In this document: positions 17,059 through 53,758 of the stretch, one piece after another | Numbering within the stretch: the first letter of the stretch is position 1 | How the letters are laid out: every line of letters begins with the position of its first letter | Source: Bacteroidales bacterium | GTDB taxonomy: Bacteria > Bacteroidota > Bacteroidia > Bacteroidales > WCHB1-69 | Assembly (NCBI GenBank): GCA_016290295.1 | Contig: JAEETJ010000004.1 | Coordinates: 10,546 to 74,545, forward strand | Length of the DNA: 64,000 nucleotides | Reading direction: 5' to 3' | Notes under the pieces: model-generated | Database searches by the model: none | Told to the model about the DNA's origin: nothing | Seen by the model: only the letters and a program-made list of their open reading frames with translations | Position numbers and translations under genes: made by a program

Positions 17059-17107
17059 AAAATCACTTATTCAGCATAAAATAATAATCATAAAAAAATA
17101 CAAAAAC

Positions 17108-21510: not shown

Positions 21511-21542
21511 AAAAGGTCGGCAGAATCTGCCGACCTTTTTTT
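21511..21542 (+). terminator. rho-independent terminator; marks the left edge of the accessory island
   Basis: aaaaGGTCGGCAGaatCTGCCGACCttttttt: 9-bp GC-rich stem, 3-nt loop, T-run. Confidence 0.85.
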
Positions 21543-21750
21543 CTTATAAAAACTCCTAAAATTCCAATGGCCATCCTGAAGATTTCTATTGTATCAGAAA
21601 ACACACAATATGTTTCTTTTGCATGTTATCATACAATTTTGTCCACTTTTTGAACGAACGATACATTTTATACAACTCTGATTTTTAGCAAATTAACAAT
21701 AACTTTGCTCTTGATTTTATGATTTGGATAAAATAACTTTGCGGACAAAA
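21543..21750 (+). promoter_or_regulatory. cassette promoter module P1 (repeat family, copy 1 of 6)
   Basis: GTCCACTTT box at 21641, TGATTTTTAGCAAATTAACA core, and -7 box TAACTTTG at 21734-21741 (93 nt after the GTCCACTTT box). The ATG follows at 21757. Confidence 0.7.
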
Positions 21751-21756
21751 AAACAA

Positions 21757-22182
21757 ATGAACTTCACGAACAACAAAACTGGTGTCTTTGGACCCATATA
21801 TAACCAATTTCAAAACCAGCCGAAACTGGCTATTAAGCATTTACTTAAAGTACAAAACGGAGAGTGTCCCAAAGCACTGTTTCGCGAAGATATCGGATTT
21901 ATTGATATAGTATGGGGCAAAAATGATCCAAAAACCAACAAAGGATATGGTTTGAAACATATTGTGGAAAAACATGGTCAAAACATAAAATAATTGGGCT
22001 TTGAAGTTGAGGATTTTATTCCAATTGTGGTACAGTTTGGAAACTTATCCGTGAAGAAATCAGATGATAAGAAAATGATATTGGAAAGTGATACATTTAG
22101 AATAGTCATACAAACAAGGTGGGATAATCAGATCAAAATCTTTTTGCTAACAGCCTTTGATTTAAGAAAAAAGCCTGAATAA
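21757..22182 (+). pseudogene. small nuclease-like gene (PBECR/polyvalent-protein-module-like) interrupted by one in-frame TAA at 21991-21993
   Basis: MNFTNNKTGVFGPIYNQF...IDIVWGKND...GYGLKHIVEKHGQNIK-TAA-LGFEVEDF...IFLLTAFDLRKKPE. The two track ORFs (21724..21993 and 21994..22182) are in the same frame and contiguous. The domain assignment is from memory and is tentative. Confidence 0.5.
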
Positions 22183-22254
22183 ATCAGGCTAATTCTTGCA
22201 ATTACCAGGACTGCACTCATTGGTAATTTTACGATAAAGATACTCCCTTTACCA
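22166..22254 (-). ncRNA. candidate small antisense RNA (promoter + ~85-nt transcript + terminator)
   Basis: Minus strand: TTTG, then 19 nt, then TATCTTTG (-7 box, plus-strand coordinates 22261-22268). An internal hairpin AATTACCA/TGGTAATT follows. The terminator AGCCTGA-tttat-TCAGGCT+T6 straddles the stop codon of the plus-strand gene. No expression data. Confidence 0.3.
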
Positions 22255-22368
22255 ACGAGGCAAAGATACAAAAAAAATCATACGAAGCAAAAAATTTCTT
22301 TTCATTTTTTTCACCATGATAGGAAAATAGGTAAAAGATCTTTACCGACATTTTCAGCCTTGCAAAAC

Positions 22369-22560
22369 TTGACGGAATTAGCGGCGGAGCCGCAATCACC
22401 GTATAGACCCAGGCAGAGCGCCTATACCACCCCACCCTCGTAGAGGGTTCAACATCAACAGGCATGGGTATAACACCGTTATTTCTGCCGCGGTGCGGGT
22501 ATCGTGTGCACCGAAGCATTTTGGGCAAGGACACCGCGGAGGGGGGGAGCGTTTGAGACG
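22369..22560 (-). repeat. B module copy 1: ~190-nt GC-rich multi-hairpin element
   Basis: About 90% identical to 23341-23530. Hairpins: GCGGC-gga-GCCGC, ACCCTC-gta-GAGGGT, GTATAG...CTATAC, and an 8-bp stem CCGCGGTG/CACCGCGG (22487-22494 / 22532-22539) enclosing TGCTTCGGTGCA (minus-strand reading). Confidence 0.75.
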
Positions 22561-22775
22561 AAGAAGACACAATAAAAACTCCCAAAATTTCTGCTGCCAT
22601 TCTAAAGATTTTTGGAGCAGCAAAAAACACACAATATGCCTTTTTAGCATGTTATCGTATTATTTCGTCCACTTTTTGAACGAACGTTGCATTTTATACA
22701 ATACTGATTTTTAGCAAATTAACAATACTTTCATACTTGATTTTATGATTTGGATAAGATAACTTTGCAAATAAA
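22561..22775 (+). promoter_or_regulatory. cassette promoter module P2
   Basis: GTCCACTTT at 22667; -7 box TAACTTTG at 22760-22767 (93-nt spacing). Near-identical to P1 and P3. Confidence 0.7.
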
Positions 22776-22788
22776 AAAATTCAAAAAC

Positions 22789-22804
22789 TTGATATATATA
22801 TCAA
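22789..22804. promoter_or_regulatory. perfect 16-bp palindrome TTGATATATATATCAA (candidate operator)
   Basis: Read directly. It lies between P2 and a second -7-like box TAATTTTG (22814-22821), upstream of the small gene + XRE pair. Confidence 0.45.
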
Positions 22805-22828
22805 TTATTTTTATAATTTTGCAACGTC

Positions 22829-23066
22829 ATGAAAAAGAAAAGCACATTGGATAAAATATCCGAATCTCAAAAGGCTACACTCTACTCCATCAGCTTCGAG
22901 AAAGATGGCACAACTGAATTTGAGAAGTTTGTGTCAGAATTCGAGATGATATGTGATAGATTTACAACGGTTTGAAAAAATCTTAAAAGAAAACATTGAG
23001 AAAGGCTATATCAGCGTTCACGAAAAAGAACTTATAGGTACAGACAATATCATTTTCGAAATATGA
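22829..23066 (+). pseudogene. small gene upstream of XRE regulator, apparently frameshifted (+1) near 22970
   Basis: Frame 1 gives MKKKSTLDKISESQKATLYSISFEKDGTTEFEKFVSEFEMICDRFTTV*. The +1 frame continues KILKENIEKGYISVHEKELIGTDNIIFEI*, and its TGA overlaps the ATG of the next gene (ATGA at 23063-23066). Confidence 0.4.
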
Positions 23067-23332
23067 AAAACAAACAAGAATGGTTCAAATCAAAAGTGAA
23101 GCAAGTCCCTCCGGAAATCATGACGGAAGTACAGCTTTCCGCTGGCATTATTGCACGCATTGACAGAATTCTCAAAGAAAAAAACATGACCCAGCGCGAT
23201 TTGGCGAAGAAATTAGGGAAAAACGAAGCCATGGTATCACGATGGACCACAGGGTTCCCTAATTTCACACTTCGTACCTTAGCACAGATTTCCACCGCCT
23301 TGGGCGAACCGCTTATCAAATTGGCAGAGTAG
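23063..23332 (+). CDS. XRE-family helix-turn-helix protein (antitoxin-like regulator)
   Basis: 89-aa ORF. The HTH reads MTQRDLAKKLGKNEAMVSRWTTGFPNFTLRTLAQISTALG. Confidence 0.75.
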   Translation: MKNKQEWFKSKVKQVPPEIMTEVQLSAGIIARIDRILKEKNMTQRDLAKKLGKNEAMVSRWTTGFPNFTLRTLAQISTALGEPLIKLAE

Positions 23333-23340
23333 CCTTCCTG

Positions 23341-23530
23341 AGTTTGACGGAATTAGCGGCGGAGCCGCAATCACCGTATAGACCCAGGCAGAGTGCCTAT
23401 ACCACCCTACCCTCGTAGAGGGTTCAACATCAACAGGCATGGGTATAACTCCGTTATTTTTGCCGCGGTGTAGGTGTCGTGTGCACCGAAGCATTGGGCA
23501 AGGACACCGCGGAAGGAGGTCGATTGAGCT
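23341..23530 (-). repeat. B module copy 2
   Basis: Same hairpin set as B1. Differences include a 2-nt indel (cattttgggc vs cattgggc) and scattered substitutions. Confidence 0.75.
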
Positions 23531-23750
23531 GAAGAAGACACCCCAAAAACTCCCAAAATTTCTGCTGCCATTCCGAAGATTTCTGGAGTAGCAAAAAACA
23601 CACAATATGCATTTTTAGCATGCTATCGTATTATTTCGTCCACTTTTTGAACGAACGATACATTTTTTCATAACACTGATTTTTAGCTAATTAACAATAC
23701 TTTCACGCTTGATTTTAAGATTTGGATAAGATAACTTTGCGGACAAAAAA
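23531..23750 (+). promoter_or_regulatory. cassette promoter module P3
   Basis: GTCCACTTT at 23638; -7 box TAACTTTG at 23732-23739 (94-nt spacing). Confidence 0.7.
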
Positions 23751-23809
23751 ACTTATAGTAAAAAAAACAGTAAGTTATAACATATTGCAACTTTTTTGTA
23801 TTTTTGCCA

Positions 23810-24148
23810 ATGGAAAGAAAAATAATCACTTATGGAAATTATTTTAGATCATTTTTAAAGACGCTATGTGAAAATGTTCGATGGAAATTGGATTATGTAT
23901 TGGATATGTTGAAGACCCAAAAGCGGCTCAACTCGAGGTTCGTCAAACCTATAAGAGAAGGGATTTTTGAATTAAGAATAGAATGGGAAGGTGACATATA
24001 TCGGGTTTTCTTCATTTTCGACGAGGGTAACATTATCGTTCTTTTTAATGGATTCCAAAAAAAAACAAGAAGAACTCCGACTTCAGAGATAGAAAAAGCA
24101 ATAACGATAAAAAAGGAATACTATGAATACAAAAGAAAACAAAATTAA
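23810..24148 (+). CDS. type II toxin, RelE/ParE superfamily (HigB / phage Gp49-like)
   Basis: The ORF is trimmed to the ATG at 23810. The IREGIFELRIEWEGDIYRVFFIFDEGNIIVLFNGFQKKTRRTP pattern is typical of Gp49/HigB-like toxins. It is followed by an overlapping XRE antitoxin gene. Confidence 0.75.
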   Translation: MERKIITYGNYFRSFLKTLCENVRWKLDYVLDMLKTQKRLNSRFVKPIREGIFELRIEWEGDIYRVFFIFDEGNIIVLFNGFQKKTRRTPTSEIEKAITIKKEYYEYKRKQN

Positions 24149-24428
24149 GAGCTATGACACTATACTTGACGAAAGGTATGGTGCCGTTGGCACTCCCGAA
24201 AGGGAAGCTTTCCGCAAAGAAGCATACGCCTACTATATGGGCCAAGTAATACGTGAAGCCCGTCGGGAGGAAAAGATAACCCAGTCCGAACTAGGCAAAC
24301 GGATTGGCGCCAATAAAAGCTACATATCAAGAGTCGAAAACGGACTCATCGACCCCACCATTTCAACCATTTATAGCATTATTACGGCTTTGGGATTAAG
24401 AATTGAGATTGTGCGCCCTGTAGGTTAA
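24123..24428 (+). CDS. HigA-like XRE-family antitoxin
   Basis: 101-aa ORF with HTH ITQSELGKRIGANKSYISRVENGLIDPTISTIYSIITALG. It overlaps the toxin 3' end by 26 nt. Confidence 0.75.
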   Translation: MNTKENKIKSYDTILDERYGAVGTPEREAFRKEAYAYYMGQVIREARREEKITQSELGKRIGANKSYISRVENGLIDPTISTIYSIITALGLRIEIVRPVG

Positions 24429-24510
24429 CATAAACAGCCACAGGTCATTGTTTTTGCAGTTATAATTAGACACCTTTTGGGTATTCTATTTGATGAAATT
24501 CAAACAGCGA

Positions 24511-25086
24511 TTATAAGTCATCTATTGCCGAACTGCGAACCTTTTCGGAATTGGCCTTGTCGTAATAGCCCAATCGAACAGCAGCTGTATTATATTTTGT
24601 CCCAGAAATAATAGACAGCTCAATGTTACCTAGATCTGTAGAGAATATGGTATACCATTCATATTCACCATCTTTTAATGCATACATGATAAGAGCATTA
24701 TCATTCCCATGATAGTCTATAAAACGTTCTCTATTGTCCGATGGAATTCCATATTTTTCAGTCAACATGGATTTTAGAGTTTCATAATCACTTAAAACCG
24801 ATGTCCATGTATCTTTATCAGGAAACAACACTGTGATATGACTCACAACATCGAGGTTTTTCAACGTGGATACCCCAACAACACAATTTTTATATCCCGC
24901 GAAATCACCAGTCAATATGGATATTCCATCTTGAGTTCCCTCGTAGTGGAATCCGGCTTTTACCATGGCATTGGTATATTCCTGTAAGGTGCCATCAATG
25001 GGCACACCCTTAAAAGAAAGATGTTGTTGGGCAAATGCAGTACCTGCAATAATGAGGCAAACGAAAAGGATGATTATTTTTTTCAT
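24511..25086 (-). CDS. secreted hypothetical protein
   Basis: The ORF is trimmed to MKKIIILFVCLIIAGTAFAQQ (signal peptide). No recognisable domain. It starts 28 nt downstream of the radical SAM gene on the same strand. Confidence 0.55.
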   Translation of the reverse strand: MKKIIILFVCLIIAGTAFAQQHLSFKGVPIDGTLQEYTNAMVKAGFHYEGTQDGISILTGDFAGYKNCVVGVSTLKNLDVVSHITVLFPDKDTWTSVLSDYETLKSMLTEKYGIPSDNRERFIDYHGNDNALIMYALKDGEYEWYTIFSTDLGNIELSIISGTKYNTAAVRLGYYDKANSEKVRSSAIDDL

Positions 25087-25114
25087 AGGGCTGTTGGTTT
25101 TTTCAATGTTATGT

Positions 25115-27178
25115 TTATTTATGTTTATATCGTTTATTTGCATGTGCAGGATCTTTGTCATATTCTTTTTTCATCAAATAAAGTTCTGTATTAGACTCTA
25201 TTAGGGATTTTCTGTCATTTTTATAAAAAGATAATAATTCCAAAACCAAAGGATTACAGAATCGTTCGTTATCGTTCTCAAAATTATTTTGATGAATATA
25301 TTCTTTAACTTCTTCCCACTCATTTGATGGAAGTATATTTTCACATTTTTTGAAGCAAGTCCACCAGGAATAAACAGAAAAATGTTCCAAACTATAACCC
25401 AATACTCTTTTTGCAGTCTCTATACCTCTTTCAAGGCCAAGCCATTCAAAGAAAAAACGATAAATAATCATCGTTTCAGGCATTTCAAGCAATTGATGAT
25501 ATTCATTTATATCTTTGCCAAAAGCTTTCTCAAAAAAAGATGTGCCTCGCCCAATCTTGCCCTTGGTGCTATTTAATATGGCTTGAACGGCACGAATATA
25601 TTTTCTATTCCAATATTCTCCAATATAGTCTCGATTATGGGAAAAATCCTCTTTCATCTCATCGTTTTTGCGAATAGGATGGAATTTCATCGGGAAGGAA
25701 TATATACTTATTCCAAGAGTATCGCATAAATCCACATTAATCCTTAAACGCTCATATAAACTGTCTGGATGGTCTTTGTAATTATATAGCAAGTAATTTG
25801 AAAAATCTTTTATTCCTGCATCTTTACACATACGAATTGCCTCACAATATTCGACCTTAGTATGTAGATTATCAAAGGCTATGCGAACGGGACGAATGGC
25901 GATCTGTCCTAACAATCTGGCTTTTTCAGGTGTAAACAATCGAGCATCTAAACCTTGATTAAAATCAACAAAACGAAGTTTACCTTTCCCAGGCTGATAA
26001 TACTTTTTGCCCACATCTTTCAGTTCATCGTATGCAGCAAGAATATTTTCCTTTGTCGCTGAATGTAATTTGTTAATATGATATTTTTGGAACAATATTT
26101 TGTATGCGAGATATGATTCTTCTCTGTTTTTCAACTTATTATAAAGTTCCATTAATAGTCTTTGTGATTTTCGAACATAAGCACGATCATTAACACCTTT
26201 TTGAAGATTATTTATACTTAATCTCAATAAATCCGGTTGCACAAATTTCTCACCCTTAGCGAACCCACAATCCTTAATTTCTTGAATAATTTTATCAAAA
26301 TGATTGGATGCCAAAACATTGTTGTCCATTAAAAGCAGATCTTTTTGTTCACCGTATTTTTTTCGGACATTGTCTATCCGAATTTTTAAAGGGATATAAT
26401 CTTGATAAATAGGCTCTAGAGTTTTTACAGCGCAAAACGCACAATTCCTTATACAACCACGTGTAGTGTATCGATAATACGCATTAGACATAGGATACTG
26501 ATAATCTATCTCATCAAGAATAGAATAGTCTAGTTCTAATTCATCAATAGGAATAGTATTATCCAGATCTAAATCTCCAGGTCGTAGAATCCCGACATGG
26601 ATCCCACCTGGTTTACCATGTTTATGAAGTTTCAAACCCGTAGCTATTGACAATTCATGAGGTTGGATTGAGGCAAGTACCCCTCCAACCATAAGGTTAC
26701 TGTTTTTCTTAACCAAAAATTTTGCGAATTCGACGGTCTCTACAGTGATGTCCCAATAAAATGTGAAGAGAGTCGTCACACAAACGACGTCCCACTCTCG
26801 TTCTCGAGGATGTTTCCAAATTCCTTTCCAATAATAGTCTTTGTATTCAATGAGTTTGGAATATAAAAGAATTGATAATTCAGAACTCTCAAGTTCTAAT
26901 TTGTCAATATACTCTTTGCGTTTTGTACGAATAAATTGAATAACAAACTCTTTTTTTAAATACCATTCAACAGAAGAATCAATCTGGGAAAAAGCATTGA
27001 TACACTTATCAGCAATACGCTCAATCACAAATTGTTTCAAGTCGCCTTTATAAAACACAACTTCATCTCCCACCATTTTGTAGTAAGTAGAGATTTTCAT
27101 CAAACCTACTGGAGGAAACTTATTTGCATAATTAGGTTCAATAAGCAGTACTTTCCGTTTCTTTTTTTGCCTTGTCAT
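25115..27178 (-). CDS. radical SAM enzyme with N-terminal B12-binding-like (Rossmann) domain and long C-terminal extension
   Basis: 687-aa ORF with a CX3CX2C cluster (TTRGCIRNCAFCAV). The N-terminal KVLLIEPNY..PPVGLMKISTYYK..GDEVVFYKGD...VVCVTTLFTF...LMVGGVLAS resembles class B rSAM cobalamin-domain topology. There is no SPASM-type Cys cluster and it is not viperin-like. Its start lies 1 nt after the upstream gene stop. Confidence 0.75.
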   Translation of the reverse strand: MTRQKKKRKVLLIEPNYANKFPPVGLMKISTYYKMVGDEVVFYKGDLKQFVIERIADKCINAFSQIDSSVEWYLKKEFVIQFIRTKRKEYIDKLELESSELSILLYSKLIEYKDYYWKGIWKHPREREWDVVCVTTLFTFYWDITVETVEFAKFLVKKNSNLMVGGVLASIQPHELSIATGLKLHKHGKPGGIHVGILRPGDLDLDNTIPIDELELDYSILDEIDYQYPMSNAYYRYTTRGCIRNCAFCAVKTLEPIYQDYIPLKIRIDNVRKKYGEQKDLLLMDNNVLASNHFDKIIQEIKDCGFAKGEKFVQPDLLRLSINNLQKGVNDRAYVRKSQRLLMELYNKLKNREESYLAYKILFQKYHINKLHSATKENILAAYDELKDVGKKYYQPGKGKLRFVDFNQGLDARLFTPEKARLLGQIAIRPVRIAFDNLHTKVEYCEAIRMCKDAGIKDFSNYLLYNYKDHPDSLYERLRINVDLCDTLGISIYSFPMKFHPIRKNDEMKEDFSHNRDYIGEYWNRKYIRAVQAILNSTKGKIGRGTSFFEKAFGKDINEYHQLLEMPETMIIYRFFFEWLGLERGIETAKRVLGYSLEHFSVYSWWTCFKKCENILPSNEWEEVKEYIHQNNFENDNERFCNPLVLELLSFYKNDRKSLIESNTELYLMKKEYDKDPAHANKRYKHK

Positions 27179-27179
27179 A

Positions 27180-28712
27180 TCAAGCCAAATCTTTAACCAC
27201 TTTTTTTCTTAATTCTTCTAAAAGGTCCCTATGTCGCTTGGGGCAATACGCGAACAACAAATCAAATATTCGCTTTGTGATTTCTATATCACTGTTTGAC
27301 ATTACCTCTTTTAGGGATTCATACGGATCAGTTGGTTTCAACAAATTATTCGTGGAAACGATGTTACTTTTGTCAGATTGCGGCATATCGCTGCCTGTCT
27401 CTATGCTTGAAGCGATAACTTGTTGCTTGTAATGTTCAATTACTTGTTTGGCAGCAACTGATTGTGCATTTTTTGACTTCTCCTTCCGATAAAGCTTGTC
27501 CAGCACAATATTTTTCTCCTCCTGTTTTTCAGGGGTTAGCTTTTCCTCTTTTTCAATTGTATTGATATCTCTGACGACATTCTTAATTTCATTTGCCAAG
27601 TGATATAACTTAACAAGTTCATCAAATTTATCTCTAATGAACGACTTCAATTTCTCAGATTCAGGAGTTGGAGCTAATCCATCTCTAGCACTATTAAGTT
27701 TGATCTTGGGATTCACAATATGTATTTCCCCATAAAAATATTTATTACCTCGTGTTTCGTTTTTGGGAAAGTATTGTGTCAAAATATTAGCATCTCCAAC
27801 CTGTATATTATGTTTGCGTAAACGGAAGCAACTATTTTTATCCGACACAGGAATCTGTTTTGAGAAAGGTGTGTTTGCATACCATCCCCATGCCAACAAA
27901 CCGTATTTCTCATCTTCAAACTTGAAATACTCCAATCTTAAAATATCATCGCCGGTCCCTTCAATTTTTAACCCATATTTTTTCTTTAGAGAAATGCCAT
28001 TGTTGACCGATATTTGGAAAAAACCAACTTTCTGGTGTAAATCTCTATACTCATCGTGAACACAAGTATCAACCAATTGATTCTTAAAAGGCACGGAATA
28101 ATCAACTGGTGCAACTTCCTTGAGATAATCTGATATAACACACTCATCTAACAATTCTGGATAATCAGGGTGGATATTTTCAAGAGTTACAATAAAATAG
28201 TGTTTTGAAGCTTCTTCTTCGTATAGTTTCAAATCTGTAGTCTTATCAATCACTTCCGTTGCTGTAGAGTGGTCTGAATCATCATCTAGAATGTTTTTTA
28301 TTTTATCAATATCAAAGACTATTTCAGACGCCTTATTTTCGCCTTTAAAAGACGTCTTGAAAGAAAGTTTTTTACAAAAATATCCGCCGACCAGTCTTCC
28401 AATGCCAAATTGTCCAGCTGAAGTCTCTCCATCTTTTGAAGAGTCTGCTATATCAAGCAACACCGGTTCCACCTTGTCTATAGATACTCCTGTTCCATTA
28501 TCTTCAATGGTAATTATCTTGTCAGTTTTATTGATAGTGATAGAAATCCTTCCATCAGTTATCTTTGACAAGACACCACTTTGTACCGCATCATTTATTG
28601 CATCCCGTGAATTCTGTATGTATTCTCGATAAATCAATTTTGAATCTCCATACATTTGGAACATAAGCATGGAAATAAGATTCTTACCGACTTTTGATTT
28701 ATGCTCTGTCAT
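27180..28712 (-). CDS. GHKL-superfamily ATPase, Hsp90/HtpG-N-terminal-like (MORC-like conflict-system ATPase)
   Basis: 510-aa ORF. It has the N-box LIYREYIQNSRDAINDAV, the G1 box ITIEDNGTGVS and the G2 box GQFGIGRLVGGYF. The C-terminal half is helical and charged. Confidence 0.75.
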   Translation of the reverse strand: MTEHKSKVGKNLISMLMFQMYGDSKLIYREYIQNSRDAINDAVQSGVLSKITDGRISITINKTDKIITIEDNGTGVSIDKVEPVLLDIADSSKDGETSAGQFGIGRLVGGYFCKKLSFKTSFKGENKASEIVFDIDKIKNILDDDSDHSTATEVIDKTTDLKLYEEEASKHYFIVTLENIHPDYPELLDECVISDYLKEVAPVDYSVPFKNQLVDTCVHDEYRDLHQKVGFFQISVNNGISLKKKYGLKIEGTGDDILRLEYFKFEDEKYGLLAWGWYANTPFSKQIPVSDKNSCFRLRKHNIQVGDANILTQYFPKNETRGNKYFYGEIHIVNPKIKLNSARDGLAPTPESEKLKSFIRDKFDELVKLYHLANEIKNVVRDINTIEKEEKLTPEKQEEKNIVLDKLYRKEKSKNAQSVAAKQVIEHYKQQVIASSIETGSDMPQSDKSNIVSTNNLLKPTDPYESLKEVMSNSDIEITKRIFDLLFAYCPKRHRDLLEELRKKVVKDLA

Positions 28713-28724
28713 AACACTCTGATT

Positions 28725-30377
28725 TTAGCCATTAGGAAATTGCTTGTATGTTGGACGTGGAAATTTAATATTTACCAAAGACCGCAGTGCTGGATTGGAA
28801 ATAATATATTCACCTGGGGAAAGTCTAGTCATCATATTTTGGTATACTTTCGGAATATACCTATAATCAGACTTTGAAACTTCGATTGCATTCGTGCGAC
28901 CATACGCATGCGTAGCACAGTTTCCTTTTACTCTATCGTGTATTGCGCTTCGAAATTGCTCAACCGAAAAAAGTATGATTCCTAAAGAACGACCGCGTTC
29001 GGCAATATCTAGCAATTGCCGTAGAATAGGCGAGTTTTTAGGTACATCGTTTGAAGCATATTTGTTCAATTCATCCACAAACAAAATCACTTTTTCAGGG
29101 ATATCATCACGTTCTGCACCCAATTTCATATCATAAATGGCACGTGCCACACTACCGAATACAAAACTTTGAGTATTCTCGTCTAGGCGGGCAATATCAA
29201 TTACCATTACTTGACCTGCCTTCAAATTATTTTGTATTTCATCTGTAATGTCAACATCCAAATTTGTATGTGTTTTGGCAAATACATCATTTCTAATAGC
29301 TTTACTTATACAACGTTTGAATTTTCTCCAACTAGTAACTTGTATCTCTTTGTTTTTATTGTCTTTATTTCCAGCTTGTGTTGATTTGCTAATAGCATCT
29401 TCTAATGACGACCACTTGTCAATTCCTTGAAAAGCGCCCTCCTTGTTAATGACGAAATTTACGCAACTTTCCAATGTACCAGAGCTATCATCCTCATTGG
29501 CAAGTAGTAAATCTAATTTATCCTGTGATTTTTCAAATGTAAATTTGTATGTAAAAGCTTTTTTATTCTCCTTCTGTCTTTTAACATCGTCTGGTTTGGC
29601 ATAAGTTTGCACATTTTCAACAATACTATCTTTACTATATGGATAATAGTATTTGACATTTTTAAATGGTTCAGCCGACAAACCTAAATCCATATAAATT
29701 TTTTTATCCATATCCGATAAATCTGTATTTGCCTCGTCTATCGCCATCAAGTCCCTTCCTTTTACATTGAAAAAAACGAAAGCAGCAGAACTCCCATCTT
29801 CAAGCCTAAATTTGTGTTGAATAGCATTAAGTAAAAACATGGAGTATGATGTTTTTGCTGCTAAGCCTGAAATACCAGAAATATTAAGATGTGCTCCTTC
29901 TGGACCGATAAGGAAATGAGAGTCCAGTTCCACTTTTACTTTACATGTTTCATCTCCTTGATACATTTGCAAATACCCACATACGAGAGGATGTTTCACA
30001 TCTTTTAACCCAAGAGCAACTTTAATATCCTCTTCATCACAAAGAGAAACCTGTTTGCCGTCTAATACAGGCGTATAAACATCTCCTGTATTACAAACAA
30101 CACGAGCTTTTACATAATTCATTCCCAAATGATTCATATAGCCAACGACTTCTTTAGTATCTCCAAAATCGCTAGAAATATAACTAGTAAAATGACTTGA
30201 TGAATCTGTTACATGGTTAATTTCTTCAACCACACCATATGTAACAGAATCTAACTCGTGTGTAACTTTGACGACATCAAAAGGACTGAGAATACATCGT
30301 TTGTCAGTCCAAAAATAAAACTCGTCAATAGTTGATGGCATATTTTCAGTGGCAGATACTTTACCAATAATTTTCAT
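28725..30377 (-). CDS. HerA-like FtsK/HerA-superfamily ATPase (HAS-barrel + P-loop, DUF87-type)
   Basis: 550-aa ORF. It has an N-terminal HAS-barrel-like segment (KIIGKVSATEN...FDVVKVTHELDSVTYGVVEEINHV), an atypical P-loop (ISGISGLAAKTSY), Walker B (VILFVDELNKY) and a distal ERGRSLGIILFSVEQ segment. Confidence 0.7.
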   Translation of the reverse strand: MKIIGKVSATENMPSTIDEFYFWTDKRCILSPFDVVKVTHELDSVTYGVVEEINHVTDSSSHFTSYISSDFGDTKEVVGYMNHLGMNYVKARVVCNTGDVYTPVLDGKQVSLCDEEDIKVALGLKDVKHPLVCGYLQMYQGDETCKVKVELDSHFLIGPEGAHLNISGISGLAAKTSYSMFLLNAIQHKFRLEDGSSAAFVFFNVKGRDLMAIDEANTDLSDMDKKIYMDLGLSAEPFKNVKYYYPYSKDSIVENVQTYAKPDDVKRQKENKKAFTYKFTFEKSQDKLDLLLANEDDSSGTLESCVNFVINKEGAFQGIDKWSSLEDAISKSTQAGNKDNKNKEIQVTSWRKFKRCISKAIRNDVFAKTHTNLDVDITDEIQNNLKAGQVMVIDIARLDENTQSFVFGSVARAIYDMKLGAERDDIPEKVILFVDELNKYASNDVPKNSPILRQLLDIAERGRSLGIILFSVEQFRSAIHDRVKGNCATHAYGRTNAIEVSKSDYRYIPKVYQNMMTRLSPGEYIISNPALRSLVNIKFPRPTYKQFPNG

Positions 30378-30378
30378 A

Positions 30379-31581
30379 TTAAAACATATTTAGAATTATA
30401 TTTTCATTAACATAATGCGATTTGCAAAAAGATTCAGTTAAGAAAATAGGGTACAAATGATTTGCCCAACGTGAATCTTTCCCAAAACACACGGGATATG
30501 CTTCTCGGATTAACTGTGAACTTATTGTGTTAATTAGTTCCGTTTCAAAAGGGCTATCATCCATTATCACCATTTCGCATTTAATGATATCTGAGAAATG
30601 TGAATCTCGAAAATCACTATTGCGCAGTCTGACATACCATACCGCAAATGCTTGAACAAAACCGTCTTTATTTTGTGATTCATAACGATACACTTTAGTA
30701 CGTTCAAATGGCTTTAACTCGGCAATCGTTCTTGAAAGTCGATTTCCTTCATAATCAGAGAGAAGAGCGGGATCAAATAATTTGGAGACACCGACAACAT
30801 GTGTGTAATTATCTTTAAAGTTATTGAACTGCGTTTTATCAAGGTTTGAAAACCTTGGATTATATTCCAAAGAACCATCTTTAATTAGCCAATGCTCATC
30901 ATCTAGTTTGTTTTCTTGGCAAAGATTTGCCACAAGAAGTTGCTCTTCATCCATCATTTCATTTTGAATCTTAGCTACCGCACGATTCTTATAATTGTCT
31001 TTGTCACGATCCTCACTTGACCCATCAGTTTTGTATAGCAATATCTTATCAATTGTCAAATTTCTATCTGAAATGAATTTGGACTTTAACATTTCAGTAT
31101 TCAAACTTTCGCAAAATGCACGACAAAAGTTCTCACCTCCATCATCATCATCAAAATCATCAGGCATTGCAATGACAATTTTACTACAAAGAGCACCCCT
31201 TTTAACAAGGGATGCATTCTTAATACAATCCCGACTTTTCCGTTCACAACAACCCACTATCACTTGTCCTGCAATTATGGGGAAAATTTTCTTACCAATG
31301 GCAATATCATCTACCTTGTATGTATGGCGTGAACCATCAAGAAAAAAACTAAATATTGGAGGGGGCACAACAGTATGACTTAGTAATTTGGACAAATCGA
31401 CTGTTTTTTTTCGTGTTCTATCTGTTTCTGCAAAGTCACTCTTTGTAGAAATAGAGGCAACCTTATCATCATAATTATAAGCTATGGAATCGTTGTTCAC
31501 TGTGTCCAGTGATAATTTCTTCGTCTTGTAACAATGATATTTGCCATTACCCTGCAACTCTATGAAATCTAATATTTTCAT
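30379..31581 (-). CDS. NurA-like nuclease (RNase H-fold), partner of the HerA-like ATPase
   Basis: 400-aa ORF. The motif order resembles NurA: FLDGSRH, then ..CCER.., then WLIKDGSLEY, then VVGVSKLF, then LYPIFLTESFCKSHY. Its stop lies 1 nt before the HerA-like start. The assignment is motif-based and needs profile or structure confirmation. Confidence 0.5.
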   Translation of the reverse strand: MKILDFIELQGNGKYHCYKTKKLSLDTVNNDSIAYNYDDKVASISTKSDFAETDRTRKKTVDLSKLLSHTVVPPPIFSFFLDGSRHTYKVDDIAIGKKIFPIIAGQVIVGCCERKSRDCIKNASLVKRGALCSKIVIAMPDDFDDDDGGENFCRAFCESLNTEMLKSKFISDRNLTIDKILLYKTDGSSEDRDKDNYKNRAVAKIQNEMMDEEQLLVANLCQENKLDDEHWLIKDGSLEYNPRFSNLDKTQFNNFKDNYTHVVGVSKLFDPALLSDYEGNRLSRTIAELKPFERTKVYRYESQNKDGFVQAFAVWYVRLRNSDFRDSHFSDIIKCEMVIMDDSPFETELINTISSQLIREAYPVCFGKDSRWANHLYPIFLTESFCKSHYVNENIILNMF

Positions 31582-31954
31582 ATTCTTTCAAACTGTTTTT
31601 TCCCCACCCCAAAAAAAATTTATTTCCTATCAAAGTTCCGGAAAGACTTGCAACATAAATAAAGTAACTCCACGCCTAAGCGCAAACATCACTTTTTATA
31701 GAGCTTTTTCAAAACTTTCCAGTTTCTAATATCACAAAAAAAATGCTTTTTTATACTAAGTGTTTTAAAGAGATTGTTTTCTTCTATGGGCAATTATTAT
31801 TTGTTAATGATTAAATTCGTTTTGTGCATCATATGCGTTGCAAAAGTAACATAAATTTCTAAAAAAAACAACAAAAAACTATCTTTTACAACGGTTTTCC
31901 ATTGTTTTTGTTTTGTTGCAAAGTATTGTTATTACTTTGTTGGCATGTTCGCGA

Positions 31955-32305
31955 CTTTCGCGGCAGGCTCATCCCATCATCATAGCAAGCAACACCCGCA
32001 CCGCGGGAGGAGTGATGATGTCGCTCCTACCCCACACTGCGGCCTGCGGCCTTGTGAGGGGTTACTAAAAGGTCGCCTCTGCGAGGCTCAATTGGTACGG
32101 CTTCGCCGTAATATACATACCATTACCCCGCCCTTCGGGCACCCGTTGGAGGCGTTGTCCCTTGTCCGTTCCAGGGGCTTTGCCCCTGTCTGTACCAGGG
32201 GTTTCACCCCTGTCTATGGTCTTTTCGGCCCTACGGGCCTTACTCCGCCCTGTCGATGCGTCCCATCAATTGTCCACCAACGGACGCATGCGATGCGTCC
32301 CTATA
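31955..32305 (+). repeat. C module copy 1: mosaic of GC-rich hairpins (REP/BIME-like)
   Basis: It begins with CTTTCGCGGCAGGC. Contents: CCAGGGGctttgCCCCTG, CAGGGGtttcaCCCCTG, GGCCCtacGGGCC and GGACGCATgcgATGCGTCC. Confidence 0.75.
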
Positions 32306-32401
32306 TATCATATTTATATCAAAAATTTCCGCATGGAAATTTTTACCTTAATACCGCTTTTGCGAATTACTTGCTTAGAAAAACGAGGAGTATGGAGAGC
32401 T

Positions 32402-32543
32402 AAAAAGCCGACTGTTTGAGCTTGCTTTTGCAAGCGAGTTTCGGCTTTTTAGGCTACAGACGACCGTTTTTTAGCGAGCATATTCGCATGCGGAAAAGCC
32501 ACTTTTCTTTGCCCCTTTCTTTTGTGGCTGCAAAAGAAAGGGG
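32402..32543. other. two strong nested hairpins between C1 and P4
   Basis: AAAAAGCCGA...(GCTTGCttttGCAAGC)...TCGGCTTTTT at 32402-32450, and CCCCTTTCTTTTG-tggctg-CAAAAGAAAGGGG at 32512-32543. Confidence 0.7.
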
Positions 32544-32559
32544 AAGAAAAAAAAATCAC

Positions 32560-32700
32560 AACATCTTTTTTGCAACTTTTCGCTCACTTTCGTCCACTTT
32601 TTGACCCGAAAGTGCAAATTGTCAAACCATTGATTTTTAGCAAATTAAAAATTATTTTGCCATTGATTTTTCAGTTCAGGTGTTGTACCTTTGCAGAAAT
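32560..32700 (+). promoter_or_regulatory. cassette promoter module P4
   Basis: GTCCACTTT at 32592; -7 box TACCTTTG at 32686-32693 (94-nt spacing); ATG at 32721. Confidence 0.7.
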
Positions 32701-32720
32701 CAAAAACTAAATAAAAACTT

Positions 32721-33296
32721 ATGGAAAAGAATCGTCCTCAAGTGGGGAGCGGGCCATCCAATTCGGACTCCCCATCAGACAATGTCAATTCTTCTATTAC
32801 GAGTAGCCCTACCGATACCCTTCGTACCTCGAAGAATCCGAGTGCAAAAATAATAAAAAATCCAACACCAATATTGTCAAAAATAAGGAAATTTAAAAAC
32901 AATGACTTCGTCCTAAATTACTCTAAAGGATGGAATGGTGTATTAGTTGGTTTACGAAAACTCCTGCAACTAAATTATGAAGGCGGTTCAAACTATGCAA
33001 ATTACGAAACTCAAAAGGGGATTTTATCATTAAGGCTTTCTGACCATAATGCAAATGGCAACAATTTTAACACAGACCACATCAATATAAGTGTTTATGT
33101 TGCACTGATTGAATATCAGCATGTTGAGACAAGGGTAAAATACATAGAATATAGAATCACGAAAGAAACGTATAATAAATACCCCAAAAAAGTTGTATAT
33201 GAAATTGTAACTGCAGTTGAACGAGCATTGAGTGGTGAAGTGTTTGAATTAAACAATGACATTGCTGAGAAGACGCCTTATGAAATAGAAATCTAG
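32721..33296 (+). CDS. hypothetical protein (disordered Ser/Pro/Asn-rich N-terminus, globular C-terminal ~130 aa)
   Basis: 191-aa ORF directly served by P4. No domain recognised. It has a notable LSLRLSDHNANGNNF segment. Confidence 0.55.
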   Translation: MEKNRPQVGSGPSNSDSPSDNVNSSITSSPTDTLRTSKNPSAKIIKNPTPILSKIRKFKNNDFVLNYSKGWNGVLVGLRKLLQLNYEGGSNYANYETQKGILSLRLSDHNANGNNFNTDHINISVYVALIEYQHVETRVKYIEYRITKETYNKYPKKVVYEIVTAVERALSGEVFELNNDIAEKTPYEIEI

Positions 33297-33377
33297 GGCC
33301 TGACAAGTCTGCTTAAACTCCGCCATGACAATGTGTGCGGGAGCAAGATCGAAATCATCCTTTGCTAAAACAACACA

Positions 33378-33754
33378 CTTTCGCGGCAGGCTCATCCCAT
33401 CATCATAGCTGGCGACACCTGTGCCGCGAGATGGGTATGGGGCATTTTGTACCAGGGGGTTCACCCCTGGCTATGGTCTTTTCGGCCCTACGGGCCTTAC
33501 TCCGCCCAGATGCCACATCCCTACAATTGTACACCAACGGACGCACGCGATGCGTCCCTACAGACTAATCCAGCGGACACATAGAGAAATGCCTACGGCT
33601 GCCGTGATACGACAGCCCTACATGATGTGCGTGCGGACGCGGACGCATGCGATGCGTTCCTACACATAATACCCTGCGGCATCAGGGCGTAAAACTTCCG
33701 AAATTTCAGTTCCACCCTTCCTATCTTCAACCTGGATTCCAAAACCTCCACCTT
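33378..33754 (+). repeat. C module copy 2
   Basis: The anchor hairpin CGCGGCA...TGCCGCG is followed by CCAGGGG/CCCCTGG, GGCCC/GGGCC and three hairpin+CCCTACA units (minus strand reads GTAG+hairpin). About 95% identical to C3 over ~250 nt, estimated by eye. Confidence 0.8.
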
Positions 33755-33892
33755 CTTTTTTTTGCAACTTTTCGAACAATCTTGTCCACTTTCTGATCCA
33801 AAAATACAATTTATTAAACTATTGATTTTTAGCAAATTAACACACAATTTACTATTGATTTTTCTGTACTGATATCGTAACTTTGTGGGCAA
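33755..33892 (+). promoter_or_regulatory. cassette promoter module P5
   Basis: GTCCACTTT at 33784; -7 box TAACTTTG at 33878-33885 (94-nt spacing); ATG at 33906. Confidence 0.7.
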
Positions 33893-33905
33893 AAACAAAG
33901 TACTT

Positions 33906-34898
33906 ATGGCAAAGAAAAAGGATAAGAACGAACAACAAACTATCAAACCAGTCACAAATTGTGACCAGTTCCCAGAGGTAGTGGAAAATTTCCACCACTT
34001 CAAAGAAAACGAATCTATACTAAGTGTTCATGATATTGAAAAACTAATCGTAACGCTCAGAGGCGTACAAGTTATTATTGATCGTGATTTGGCATTTCTA
34101 TATCAGGAAGAAGTCAAACAAATGAACCGTCAGGTGAAGCGTAATATTGAACGTTTCCCTGCAGATTTCATGTTTCAACTGACCAAGGAAGAGTATGCTA
34201 GTTTGAAGTGCCATTTTGGCACTTCAAACGAAAGGGGTGGTGATCGTCGTGCATTACCCTATGCGTTTACCCAACAAGGTATTGGTATGCTCAGCGGGCT
34301 GCTTCGTAGTCAAGTGGCAATTGAGACCAACATCAAGATAATGCGAGCCTTTGTGGGTATGCAACGATACATCGCCGCTAGCATGCAGCTATTCCAGCGG
34401 TTAAACATCGTAGAGCTCCAACAATTGGAGGCCCGACAATGGATGAAAGATACGGAAAACAAAATTGAAAGCATTCTTGAAAGAATCGAAGAGAATTCCC
34501 CAAAAATGCTTCCAGAGCAAATTTTCCACACCGGCTGTGTATGGGACGCATGGGCTTACGTTTCTGACCTCGTTCGAAGCGCCAAAAGCCGAATCATCCT
34601 CATTGATAATTTCGTTGATGACAGGGTGCTTACCATGCTCACCAAACGTACCGAGGGCGTTACGGCTACCATCCACACCCGTTACAGTGAGCAGTTCCTC
34701 ACTGACTTGAAGAAGCACAACGAACAGTATCCTGAAATCCAATTCATCCAGCTCTCTCATCGCCACCACGACCGTTTCTTGATTATCGACGACAAGGTTC
34801 ATTTCCTCGGTGCCAGCGTAAAGGACATGGGCACCGGCCTCTGTGCCATTACAGAGATGAAAGTTGATCCTGAAACCATTTTGGGGCTGTTAAAATAA
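33906..34898 (+). CDS. ORF6N (KilA-N-related) DNA-binding domain protein fused to a PLD-like domain with HxR variant motif
   Basis: The ORF is trimmed to MAKKKDK. ORF6N core: LRGVQVIIDRDLAFLYQEEVKQMNRQVKRNIERFPADFMFQLT...LPYAFTQQGIGMLSGLL. C-terminal HDRFLIIDDKVHFLGASVKD fits the HxKxxxxD(x6)G spacing with R in place of K. Confidence 0.7.
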   Translation: MAKKKDKNEQQTIKPVTNCDQFPEVVENFHHFKENESILSVHDIEKLIVTLRGVQVIIDRDLAFLYQEEVKQMNRQVKRNIERFPADFMFQLTKEEYASLKCHFGTSNERGGDRRALPYAFTQQGIGMLSGLLRSQVAIETNIKIMRAFVGMQRYIAASMQLFQRLNIVELQQLEARQWMKDTENKIESILERIEENSPKMLPEQIFHTGCVWDAWAYVSDLVRSAKSRIILIDNFVDDRVLTMLTKRTEGVTATIHTRYSEQFLTDLKKHNEQYPEIQFIQLSHRHHDRFLIIDDKVHFLGASVKDMGTGLCAITEMKVDPETILGLLK

Positions 34899-34964
34899 CG
34901 ACCTGTTATTAGTACCGACGCTGTGCAGGGCAAGGCCGCCACCTCCCTCTGCTACAGCAACAGC

Positions 34965-35361
34965 CTTTCGCGGCAGGCAAGTTCCGTCATCAAAGCCAGT
35001 GTCCCTTGTGCCGCGAGGTGGGTATGGGGCATTTTTTACCAGGGGGTTCACCCCTGTCTATTCCAGGGGCTTTGCCCCTGTCTGTATTCTTTTCGGCCCT
35101 ACGGGCCTGATTAAGCCATAACACCGCATCCCTACAATTGTTCACCGACGGACGCATGCGATGCGTCCCTACAGACTAATCCAGCGGACACATAGAGACA
35201 TGCCTGCGGCTGCCGTGATACGACAGCCCTACATGATGTGCACGCGGATGCGGACGCATGCAATGCGTCCCTACACATAATACCCTGCGGCATCAGGGCG
35301 TAAAACCTCCGAAATTTCAGTTCCTCTCTCCCCTACTTCAGCTTGGATTCCAAAACCTCCA
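34965..35361 (+). repeat. C module copy 3
   Basis: Same unit order as C2, with an extra CCAGGGGctttgCCCCTG unit. Confidence 0.8.
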
Positions 35362-35505
35362 CCTTCCTTTTTTTTGCAACTTTTCGCTCACTTTTGTCCA
35401 CTTTCTGACCCAAAAGTTCAATTTATTAAACTATTGATTTTTAACAAATTAACAATTACTTTTCCATTGATTTTATGATTTCAACATTGTAACTTTGCGA
35501 GCGGA
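35362..35505 (+). promoter_or_regulatory. cassette promoter module P6
   Basis: GTCCACTTT at 35396; -7 box TAACTTTG at 35490-35497 (94-nt spacing); ATG at 35530. Confidence 0.7.
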
Positions 35506-35529
35506 AACAAACCATTAATTTTAAATACT

Positions 35530-36132
35530 ATGGAAAACAATTTACTTCCCGAAGTGGAAAAGAAAATTATCACCCTCAGAAACCAACAAGTGATATTGGA
35601 TTCAGATGTGGCTGATTTGTATGGTGTGGAAACCAAAGAAATTAATCAAGCAGTAAAAAACAATCCCGAGAAATTTCCCAAAGGATACATTTTTCAACTT
35701 GAAGATCAAGAATTTAGAAATTTGCGGTCAAAAAATTTGACCACAAAATTTTCAAAAACACGACAACTTCCTAAAGCTTTTACCGAAAAAGGACTTTACA
35801 TGTTAGCCACCATTCTCAAAAGTCCTAAAGCGGTGGAAACCACCATTGCCATTGTGGAAGCATATGCCAAATTAAAGGAACTATCACGGGTGATTGTGGA
35901 AGTTCCACATAAAGAGGAGGACAGCATGGAACAAAAGGTTCTCCTACATCGCGGAGGACAGTTAGTGGAAGACATCATGAGCAACATCCTTCCCAAACAA
36001 AGCAGTGAAACCTCCTTCGAACTAAACCTCGCCATGTTCAAATTCAAACATTCAGTAAAACGGGAGAACGAAGACAAAATCAACAGACTTGAAGCGGAAC
36101 TCGCTGAATTAAAGAAGAAAATCAAAACCTAA
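35530..36132 (+). CDS. ORF6N domain-containing protein (short form with C-terminal coiled coil)
   Basis: 200-aa ORF: LRNQQVILDSDVADLYGVETKEINQAVKNNPEKFPKGYIFQLE...LPKAFTEKGLYMLATILKS. Confidence 0.75.
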   Translation: MENNLLPEVEKKIITLRNQQVILDSDVADLYGVETKEINQAVKNNPEKFPKGYIFQLEDQEFRNLRSKNLTTKFSKTRQLPKAFTEKGLYMLATILKSPKAVETTIAIVEAYAKLKELSRVIVEVPHKEEDSMEQKVLLHRGGQLVEDIMSNILPKQSSETSFELNLAMFKFKHSVKRENEDKINRLEAELAELKKKIKT

Positions 36133-36245
36133 CGCTTCGTCCCTACAATTGTCCACCAACGGACGCATGCAATGCGTCCCTACAGACTAATCTAGCGGAC
36201 ACATAGAGAAATGCCTGCGGCTACCGTGATACGACAGCCCTACAG
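36133..36245 (+). repeat. C module copy 4 (truncated: two hairpin+CCCTACA units); right edge of island
   Basis: cgtCCCTACAattgtccaccaacGGACGCATgcaATGCGTCCCTACAgactaatc...GGCTAccgtgatacgaCAGCCCTACAg. Confidence 0.75.
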
Positions 36246-36540
36246 AAAGTTGGTAAAAAAACTTCATGTCAGCTTGATTTTTTGATCACTTTTTTATCAA
36301 GTTTTCATTGAAATATTCAAACGGACATGTGAAATAACAGAACAAAAAATGTTCTTGTTATATAGAAGAAAAAAGTGACGAAGAAGTTATCTATTTTTTG
36401 ACTATCTTTGCACCCTCAAAATTTAGACCTAAAAATATAATAAAGTTATAATATTTCTAAACTCATAAACTCAAAATTCTAAACCCAAACTTACAAATCA
36501 CCATCATTAATTCTTGTTTTTAATTCTTAACTCCAAAAAT

Positions 36541-53450: not shown

Positions 53451-53758
53451 TTTACAATTTTCTTTAATATGGCAATAATTTTGAGAAATAATATCCATTA
53501 TGTCTGCAAAAGTAACAAATTATCCAACACATTGGGCTTTTTTTTGAAAATTTTCCAGCAGCATAAGTACAACTAATTTTTCTTTTTACAATGTTTCAAA
53601 GAAAAAAAATTCTAAAACTTACCTCCTTCAATTCGGCAGAAATGACTAATTTTGCCACCGCAAAAAAACACAGAAAACACACCGTGATTTTGCAAAATCA
53701 AAACACTAAATTAACCCTGTTAAACTATTAATTGTTAACCATCAATTATCAACTATAA

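Follow-up and report, generated by a model that had tools for sequence, protein, structure and literature searches.

A conserved, putatively promoter-bearing head precedes co-directional accessory-gene cassettes in a strain-variable defence island of uncultured rumen Bacteroidales

Defence islands are hypervariable, and to our knowledge the assembly and sustained expression of their small genes are mostly not understood outside integrons. The minimal mobile elements (MMEs) of Neisseria and the contents of defence-island hotspots are exchanged by homologous recombination between conserved flanking genes. Putative mobile promoters (PMPs) were described by Matus-Garcia et al. (2012) as upstream regions of at least 50–100 nt that share at least 80% identity and stand before non-homologous genes (PMC3488235). 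Here, we analyzed a 64-kb stretch of an uncultured rumen Bacteroidales bacterium (contig JAEETJ010000004.1; hereafter, the window), in which a module of about 137 nt occurs in six copies (P1–P6), all on the + strand. Each copy, called a head below, is followed by one or two small genes and then by a GC-rich hairpin tail, and the three parts together make up a cassette. The heads are probably the conserved 5′ promoter ends of self-contained accessory-gene cassettes and double as recombination tracts. An earlier reading of the same DNA (the original prediction) had already recognized the six copies and had offered two roles for them, a shared regulator platform or the recombination end of a mobile promoter unit.

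The box GTCCACTTT was found exactly six times in the window, on the + strand only (21641, 22667, 23638, 32592, 33784 and 35396), against 0.64 expected from shuffled sequences, in which a count of six was never reached. The 20-mer TGATTTTTAGCAAATTAACA, or block 2, likewise occurs six times with at most one mismatch (21679, 22705, 23677, 32631, 33823 and 35435; 0.02 expected from shuffles). A TA(A/C)CTTTG −7 box, which is TAACTTTG or TACCTTTG in all six copies, lies at 21734, 22760, 23732, 32686, 33878 and 35490. The positions and the box-to-(−7) offsets of 93, 93, 94, 94, 94 and 94 nt were all recovered as originally claimed. Within the head, GTCCACTTTYTGA begins 93–94 nt and TGATTTTTAGCAAATTAACA 55 nt before the −7 box; these two invariant blocks keep a fixed phase within some 70 nt of constrained upstream DNA, and the module ends in a short A-rich leader. 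The start codon follows the −7 box by 15, 27, 20 and 32 nt in cassettes 1, 4, 5 and 6, which agrees with the 15–32 nt given for four cassettes; the distance is larger in cassettes 2 (61 nt) and 3 (70 nt). An nhmmer profile built from the six copies recovered exactly these six in the window (E values of 1e-33 to 1e-36; next match, E of about 0.9).

The proposed division into two subfamilies was borne out by repeat comparison. Heads P1–P3 form the A subfamily (85–90% identity over 137 nt) and carry an upstream extension that we measured at about 65 nt, and P4–P6 form the B subfamily (74–80%), which begins with TTTTTTGCAACTTTTCG. Head P1 (21546–21745) starts right after the terminator of a DUF1599 gene (21511–21539) and contains the pre-head AAAAACTCC, the box at 21641, block 2 at 21679 and the −7 box at 21734. 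Heads P2 (22572–22771) and P3 (23543–23743) were delimited by box and block 2 matches, repeats and the profile. In the B subfamily, P4 (32561–32697) consists of the core only, its usual pre-head being replaced by a segment called X, P5 (33690–33889) includes the pre-head TAAAACTTCCGAAATTTC, and P6 occupies 35301–35501. The TGCTGC...GCAGCA hairpin ascribed to P1–P3 is degenerate in P1. A direct search for terminal repeats or an invertible-promoter arrangement found no inverted repeat pair flanking any head of the window. It was also observed that P1 alone has a second intact TAACTTTG (21700–21707), 34 nt upstream of the main −7 box and with its own TGATTTTT before it; the block 2 region therefore resembles a decayed tandem promoter copy (TTGATTTT-N-TAACTTTG twice).

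To assess the distribution of the heads, a single exact degenerate pattern that covered the box together with block 2 was searched in 185,579 species genomes and in JGI metagenomes. Among the species genomes it matched only metagenome-assembled genomes (MAGs) of rumen Bacteroidales, and a dozen rumen metagenome contigs were added; one match in a Flavobacteriales locus (L007), which had no match to the head profile, was set aside as chance. Profile searches of the pattern loci and of loci fetched through cassette-protein homologs then yielded 45 distinct heads. Except for two ORF-less heads (L009 and L019), they lie 11–70 nt upstream of a co-directional open reading frame (ORF), and all heads within any locus share one direction (6/6 on the + strand in the window). 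At least nine unrelated gene families stand behind them, namely PBECR1, a 159-aa ORF plus XRE, HigB/HigA, a 191-aa protein, short ORF6N, long ORF6N, the YhcG/DUF1016 nuclease, RhuM and KilA-N. The arrays occupy at least seven chromosomal sites, including the DUF1599–MauE interval, sites beside ftsX and beside a carbamate kinase gene, the rpsA–PMI interval, sites beside type I restriction-modification (R-M) operons and a protein-kinase locus.

A strict tie of the head to the short-ORF6N gene was rejected, as homologs of 78% identity have another promoter region and eight other families carry the head. Those homologs (L036–L039, from another Bacteroidales lineage) stand behind an operator-like palindrome, TTGTCAAGG...CCTTGACAA, with a −7 box TATATTTG and their own GC-rich hairpins (GATCCCCGCGATCCGCGGGGAT). 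A phage or plasmid origin was also considered and rejected: the first pattern gave one IMG/VR match, which is probably chance and was not compared with the head profile, the second pattern gave none, and blastn against phage and plasmid collections returned no matches.

The published sigma-ABfr consensus, including TAnnTTTG, matches the −7 motif of the heads (PMC7366714). TAnnTTTG is present in 44 of the 45 heads, the remaining one having TAACTTTT. The −33 TTG is supplied by TTGATTTT, whose start precedes the −7 TA by 23 nt in 44/45 heads; the resulting 20-nt spacer falls within the range of about 19–21 nt for this promoter class. The same −7 motif precedes operon-leading housekeeping genes in the window. 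This geometry supports the assignment of the box to the Bacteroidota sigma-A −7 element made in the original prediction, and the heads are accordingly described here as predicted primary-sigma promoters. A Sigma-70 promoter scan was uninformative for this phylum.

The spacing between box and −7 box is 94 nt in 37 and 93 nt in 8 of the 45 unique heads, with pairwise identity among them falling to 56%. Rates were compared in short-ORF6N cassettes that co-diverged with their heads. Between orthologs, pairwise identity was 0.49 at fourfold-degenerate sites and 0.59 at third codon positions, and it rose to 0.73 in the head core, where 46% of the 130 columns are invariant and one is a gap column; the 5′ leader stood at 0.75 and the pre-head at 0.59. 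The excess of the core over fourfold sites indicates purifying selection well beyond the −33/−7 elements. The remark that the conserved DNA is more than a promoter needs is thus upheld, the whole core of about 130 nt being under purifying selection and essentially free of indels. Conservation is block-wise (TTTTTTGC.AC, GTCCACTTTYTGA, TTGATTTTTAGCAAATTAAC, TTGATTTT and TAACTTTGC), and the upstream blocks may be protein-contact sites, for upstream contacts of RNA polymerase and/or for a regulator.

A nucleic-acid structure at the GTCCACTTT box, in the form of a conserved hairpin (CACTTTTG...CAAAAGTG, or the box pairing with AAAGTG), was considered and rejected. An inverted repeat around the box is paired in 77–86% of cells in B/C-type heads and is absent in A-type heads, and its covariation is no better than in shuffles, with a single compensatory event. 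A known RNA family was likewise discarded: no Rfam match reached the gathering score in the window, and relaxed thresholds gave chance-level matches only.

The heads belong to an island (21543–36300) that breaks up the chromosome between the DUF1599 gene and a MauE/DoxX-AhpC gene and consists of three + strand cassettes, a minus-strand five-gene operon of low GC content and three more + strand cassettes. Strain variants of this DUF1599–MauE island were collected as contigs carrying an identical short-ORF6N protein. Strains of the same species differ here both in their cassette sets and in the middle operon. In L047, DUF1599 leads directly to cassette 4, without the A cassettes and without the middle operon. 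Other strains carry Dnd genes, or a type I R-M system plus ApeA, in the middle slot together with an extra KilA-N cassette, and RUG14804 and RUG11690 have yet other middle operons.

Several of the differences lie within the heads themselves. The head of L047 is chimeric: the stretch from its GC repeat to block 2, including the box, is of A type, and the sequence from block 2 on is of P4 type. The ORF-less head beside MauE in L019 is of B type up to the GTCCACTTT box and of A type after it, and the head before cassette 6 in L046 has a P4-like 5′ half. Segment X stands before cassette 4 in the window and before cassette 5 in L049; its junction with the core head is at the T-run in either case. 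At the ftsX locus, L016 has one cassette more than L011, with breakpoints within repeated tail sequence, and smaller deletions between repeated hairpins were also seen. Taken together, the chimeric heads, the presence or absence of cassettes and the tail breakpoints show that heads and tails are substrates of gain, loss, reordering and conversion. The original interpretation was therefore supported in part: of its two proposals, the recombination end of a mobile promoter unit fares better, given junctions in invariant blocks and cassettes that come and go between strains.

A different picture was obtained in a second variable slot, rpsA–PMI, where RUG11690 (L005) has an ORF6N cassette and its relatives (L052, L053 and L055) carry Fib_succ_major/T9SS-tail genes (T9SS, type IX secretion system). 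At this one locus, the divergent stretch starts exactly behind the T-run of the rpsA terminator and reaches to the PMI stop codon, and no duplication was seen. A clean single-cassette insertion, sought at L005 by empty-site comparison, was rejected; the relatives hold other genes in the slot, which points to replacement.

The GC-rich segments are mosaics of short hairpins and fall into three sequence types: type A precedes P2 and P3, type B precedes P4–P6 and follows cassette 6, and type C is found in sister arrays. These hairpin tails, the inverted-repeat bracket of the sister arrays described below and the context of a cassette array in a defence island had all been missed, and the repeated unit is larger than was claimed. 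GC-rich repeats precede each of P2–P6 and another one follows the last cassette to about 36300, so that the feature reaches past 35505. The first type A copy (22356–22571, + strand) is 93% identical to 23331–23495 within the second (23331–23542, + strand). A structured RNA was rejected for this type, its folding z-scores of −0.9 and −0.4 being no better than shuffles. The B array starts at 31945–32560 (+ strand) with a B1 element (31954–32013), GC hairpins (32171–32303) and segment X, which contains two strong hairpin terminators (32400–32452 and 32503–32552). The tail of cassette 4 (33297–33689, + strand) comprises a degenerate relic of a right-end inverted repeat (33322–33352), a B1 element and GC hairpins, each followed by CCTACA. 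The tail of cassette 5 (34899–35300, + strand) has a right-end repeat relic (34918–34941), a B1 element and hairpins, and this type B tail folds as single-stranded DNA with z = −4.0. In the terminal tail of the array (36133–36300, + strand), two hairpin units (36121–36244) are followed by an AT-decayed relic of an inverted type C end element (36258–36300). The palindrome GGACGCATGCRATGCGTCC was observed at 32282–32305, 33539–33562, 33641–33664, 35150–35173, 35252–35275 and 36161–36184, with CTACA behind every copy. Read on the opposite strand, this gives GTAG directly 5′ of the hairpin, and the copies are confined to the island.

Hairpin units keep close to the heads: all 42 matches in the 315 kb sampled lay within 1.5 kb of a head, and none was found elsewhere in the window. 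Type B units always have the orientation of the head, type C units occur both ways, and several units are terminator-like. In the type C arrays of L001, L008, L011, L012 and L016, a 23-nt inverted repeat brackets each head–ORF unit, with CCGTCGGCCTTGCCCCCGCACGC some 110 nt upstream of the head and the inverted complement immediately behind the stop codon. The compact inter-cassette element of this type forms a long bubbled hairpin closed by the bracket repeats (z = −6.6). At the end of whole arrays stands a complete type C element in inverted orientation, which in L011 makes a 105-nt inverted repeat of 91% identity. In the window, the bracket repeats persist as degenerate relics only (33322–33352, 34918–34941 and 36258–36300).

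We suggest the following scheme for the array. Each cassette would be a self-expressing unit composed of a promoter head, its gene or genes and a terminator-like hairpin tail, the genes encoding toxin-antitoxin (TA) pairs, nucleases or ORF6N/KilA-N/RhuM/YhcG-type defence-associated proteins. Such cassettes are stacked head to tail and in one direction in strain-variable islands, and the island of the window, between the DUF1599 and MauE/DoxX genes, flanks a swappable, candidate defence operon. The head would let a cassette be transcribed wherever it is inserted, probably under common control. Heads and tails would at the same time supply the repeated sequence for deletion, insertion, reordering and conversion of single cassettes and of whole blocks. 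The most likely route would be homology-dependent recombination with crossovers in the invariant blocks.

Several points weigh against this scheme. The anatomy, conservation, fixed spacing and distribution of the heads, the strain polymorphism and the chimeric junctions were observed, but the activity and the start site of the putative promoters, the binders of the upstream blocks and the enzymes of recombination are deduced. The evidence so far is comparative, and the array is so far confined to an uncultured clade. Only two or three chimeric junctions were mapped, and the identical tracts common to the head subfamilies are 13 to 20 nt long, which is short for RecA-dependent recombination and leaves room for a dedicated site-specific enzyme at the blocks. 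Gene conversion rather than function could partly keep the upstream blocks conserved. At rpsA–PMI, the whole slot was replaced and no clean insertion was seen, so that any route of cassette entry is conjectural. Finally, the inverted-repeat bracket around the cassettes of sister arrays is not explained by a pure homology model, and together with the short identical tracts it keeps site-specific, integron-like movement and mobilization in trans in play.

The conserved blocks could instead be putative operators of one trans-acting regulator, such as the XRE or an ORF6N protein of the island, with recombination being incidental. Block-wise conservation, rigid spacing and the lack of indels down to 56% identity fit this possibility, as do three ACTTT direct repeats about 10 nt apart with an inverted AAAGT in B/C-type heads and an ORF6N cassette in every sampled genome with heads. 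However, A-type heads lack the inverted AAAGTG arm, the co-occurrence with ORF6N is biased because half of the loci were fetched through ORF6N homologs, and the short-ORF6N genes of 78% identity use a different promoter region. As the sole function of the heads, a regulator platform is thus a tentative suggestion that we consider rather doubtful, although a common regulator acting on the blocks would be compatible with recombination by homology, with an integron-like system and with transposition alike. It is hardly credible that the heads stem from a trivial recent tandem duplication of one promoter region and serve as ordinary promoters only. The adjacent and closely similar P1–P3 (85–90%) and the adjacent P4–P6 would suit such an origin, but the downstream genes are unrelated, the same head stands in other genomes and loci before other genes, its identity is far above that of neutral sites in co-diverged cassettes, and the spacing is held at 93/94 nt in 45 heads.

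Two further explanations concern the movement of the cassettes. In an integron-like site-specific system, the GC-rich palindrome would take the role of attC and fold in single-stranded form, head–gene–tail units would be excised and inserted by a recombinase whose gene lies elsewhere, and the head would be a cassette-borne promoter. The strictly co-directional arrays, the n + 1 GC elements that accompany n cassettes in the B array, the hairpin units found only beside heads and the resemblance of TA pairs and small defence genes to the content of sedentary integrons (10.1101/2024.07.02.601686) all speak for it. The same is true of the type C repeat, which directly follows each stop codon and has an inverted partner some 110 nt upstream of the next head, and of the bubbled hairpin of the compact type C element (z = −6.6). 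Yet, the attC expression RYYYAAC...GTTRRRY had one match per strand in the island, inside the cassette 5 gene, against 3.75 ± 2.7 in shuffles. No Phage_integrase or tyrosine recombinase was seen among about 45 ORFs of the window that were scanned or among the called genes of the fetched loci. Moreover, the mapped junctions lie in heads and not in palindromes, the bracket repeats of the window are degenerate, and type A repeats fold no better than shuffles. We regard this explanation as unlikely. Still less likely are non-autonomous transposable cassettes, of the kind of a mobile insertion cassette (MIC) or of a miniature inverted-repeat transposable element (MITE) with a passenger gene, for which a transposase would act in trans and new copies would target the ends or hairpins of residents. 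The inverted-repeat bracket keeps this explanation alive: in L012, L016, L001, L008 and L011, head–ORF units are enclosed by CCGTCGGCCTTGCCCCCGCACGC on one side and the inverted complement on the other, complete inverted type C copies close the arrays (105 nt, 91% in L011), type C units occur in both orientations, and cassettes of one type recur at many unrelated loci. On the other hand, there is no target-site duplication and no clean empty site (rpsA–PMI, one locus), no related transposase was seen nearby, one orientation per locus is unusual for cut-and-paste elements, the repeats of the window are degenerate, and plasmid and phage collections gave no matches. The original prediction had named the 5′ end of a common insertion sequence (IS) or MITE as the finding that would overturn it; neither a transposase nor a target-site duplication nor dispersed copies turned up.

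We therefore return to self-contained cassettes that probably recombine through their heads and tails. Beside it we place one wider conjecture, to which we give little weight, namely that a dedicated enzyme encoded elsewhere acts on the head blocks and/or the folded tail repeats, which would make the array a previously undescribed, integron-analogous cassette system. With a promoter head and a palindromic tail on each cassette, such a system may shuffle defence and TA cassettes around swappable defence operons.

All six cassettes have their genes on the + strand. Cassette 1 encodes a PBECR1-family nuclease (21757–22182, by family match). An in-frame TAA was observed at 21991–21993 (...GQNIK*LGFEV), where intact relatives of 141 aa (RUG14804 and L010) have GAA (Glu), and the gene is probably a recent pseudogene. 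Cassette 2 (22829–23332) holds a 48-aa ORF remnant followed by an XRE-type helix-turn-helix gene (23063–23332). Compared with the 159-aa ORF that precedes the same XRE gene in RUG14804, the remnant ORF (22829–23062) shows a 237-bp deletion, and the 159-aa protein has no Pfam match. Cassette 3 (23810–24428) is a TA pair of a Gp49/HigB-like toxin and an XRE/HigA-like antitoxin, and cassette 4 (32721–33296) encodes a 191-aa protein with no family match. The gene of cassette 5 (33906–34898) encodes an ORF6N domain and a C-terminal domain and matches the PADLOC candidate defence family PDC-S05 (E = 2.6e-103). The C-terminal part of this long ORF6N protein, about 160 aa (34407–34895), was found to be 49% identical to the C-terminus of an L012 cassette protein with a RhuM-like N-terminus, which points to domain shuffling among cassette proteins; the common C-terminal domain has no Pfam match. 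Cassette 6 (35530–36132) encodes the short ORF6N protein of 200 aa (PDC-S05, E = 5.9e-74), which has thousands of close homologs in rumen metagenomes.

The variable middle slot is filled by the five-gene operon at 24511–31581 on the minus strand. It encodes proteins of 400 aa, 550 aa (a HerA/mad8-like ATPase), 510 aa (HATPase_c_3), 687 aa (a weak radical-SAM match) and 216 aa, the first and the last having no assigned family, and no PADLOC system was assigned to it. As the slot of other strains is either empty or filled with Dnd genes, with type I R-M plus ApeA or with other operons, we regard the operon as a candidate uncharacterized defence system. About 200 nt upstream of it (31619–31817) were observed to be 79% identical to the region upstream of an unrelated Dnd operon in L049/L051, and this may be a promoter region shared by swapped operons. 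A second conserved head for minus-strand operons was rejected as a general feature, these 200 nt being common only to the Dnd-carrying strain.

Around this strain-variable defence island, the window is ordinary Bacteroidales chromosome with rplY, SurA-like, TonB-dependent receptor, CoaBC, RecN, ProS, TopA and other genes. Scans of the island and the window found no tRNA, Rfam family or recombinase. The window also encodes two gingipain-like Peptidase_C25 proteins, each with a C-terminal sorting domain of the T9SS (17042–20929 and 50043–53498), 30 kb apart on opposite strands.

Full-text literature searches returned no description of this architecture, and the array belongs to no described family. 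It represents a modular solution to the assembly of small genes in the defence islands of an abundant uncultured gut and rumen lineage, in which a portable, strongly constrained head and a hairpin tail would make unrelated genes interchangeable and self-expressing. Crossovers in invariant blocks give a concrete handle on how Bacteroidales islands are assembled. The 45 natural variants of the putative promoter, of fixed geometry, could be useful for expression engineering in Bacteroidota, and the head profile could serve as a sequence tag for new small defence genes in rumen metagenomes.

Sedentary integrons and CALINs (attC clusters without an integrase; PMC4889954) are similar in many respects: they too are co-directional arrays of small, unrelated, mostly one-gene cassettes with palindromic elements at the cassette 3′ ends (which fold significantly here in types B and C but not in type A), are enriched in TA and anti-phage functions, and gain, lose and reorder cassettes at the strain level. 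As in CALINs, no integrase stands beside the array. Unlike in integrons, no attC consensus was found in the island and no IntI among the scanned ORFs of the window or the called genes of the fetched loci, the inter-cassette elements measure 150–600 nt as against 57–141 nt for attC, and the mapped junctions are in heads. In addition, each cassette has a homologous promoter head of about 200 nt; most integron cassettes lack a promoter, and they have no 5′ homology in common.

With respect to PMPs, the heads fit the published definition, with 85–90% (P1–P3) and 74–80% (P4–P6) identity over 137 nt before genes for unrelated proteins. PMPs, however, are defined by similarity and lack a cassette context, whereas the present heads come with head–gene–tail units, arrays, rigid spacing and mapped recombination junctions. 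MICs and MITEs with passenger genes (PMC4337579) share with the cassettes the absence of a transposase, the passenger genes and, in type C arrays, the inverted-repeat bracket; the differences are that no target-site duplications and no cognate IS were found, the orientation is uniform and the repeats of the window are degenerate.

The tails recall the repetitive extragenic palindromes (REPs), their mosaic BIMEs (bacterial interspersed mosaic elements) and their REPIN doublets, all mobilized by RAYT (REP-associated tyrosine transposase; PMC8049555), as they too are GC-rich mosaics of short hairpins downstream of genes. By sequence reading, the CTAC(A) of type B tails corresponds on the other strand to the GTAG 5′ of the hairpin in REPs of E. 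coli, and the right-end and left-end repeats between cassettes (R>...<L) form an inverted doublet as in REPINs. Unlike REPs and REPINs, the hairpins lie within 1.5 kb of heads and are not dispersed, and no RAYT was seen. The invertible promoters of Bacteroidales differ in having flanking inverted repeats a few hundred nt apart, which the heads of the window lack. Finally, as in MMEs and defence-island hotspots, the arrays occupy fixed slots between core genes (DUF1599–MauE, rpsA–PMI and the FtsX locus), in which gene sets vary by strain. Unlike MMEs, these units carry their own portable internal homology, in the form of heads and tails, in addition to the core flanks.

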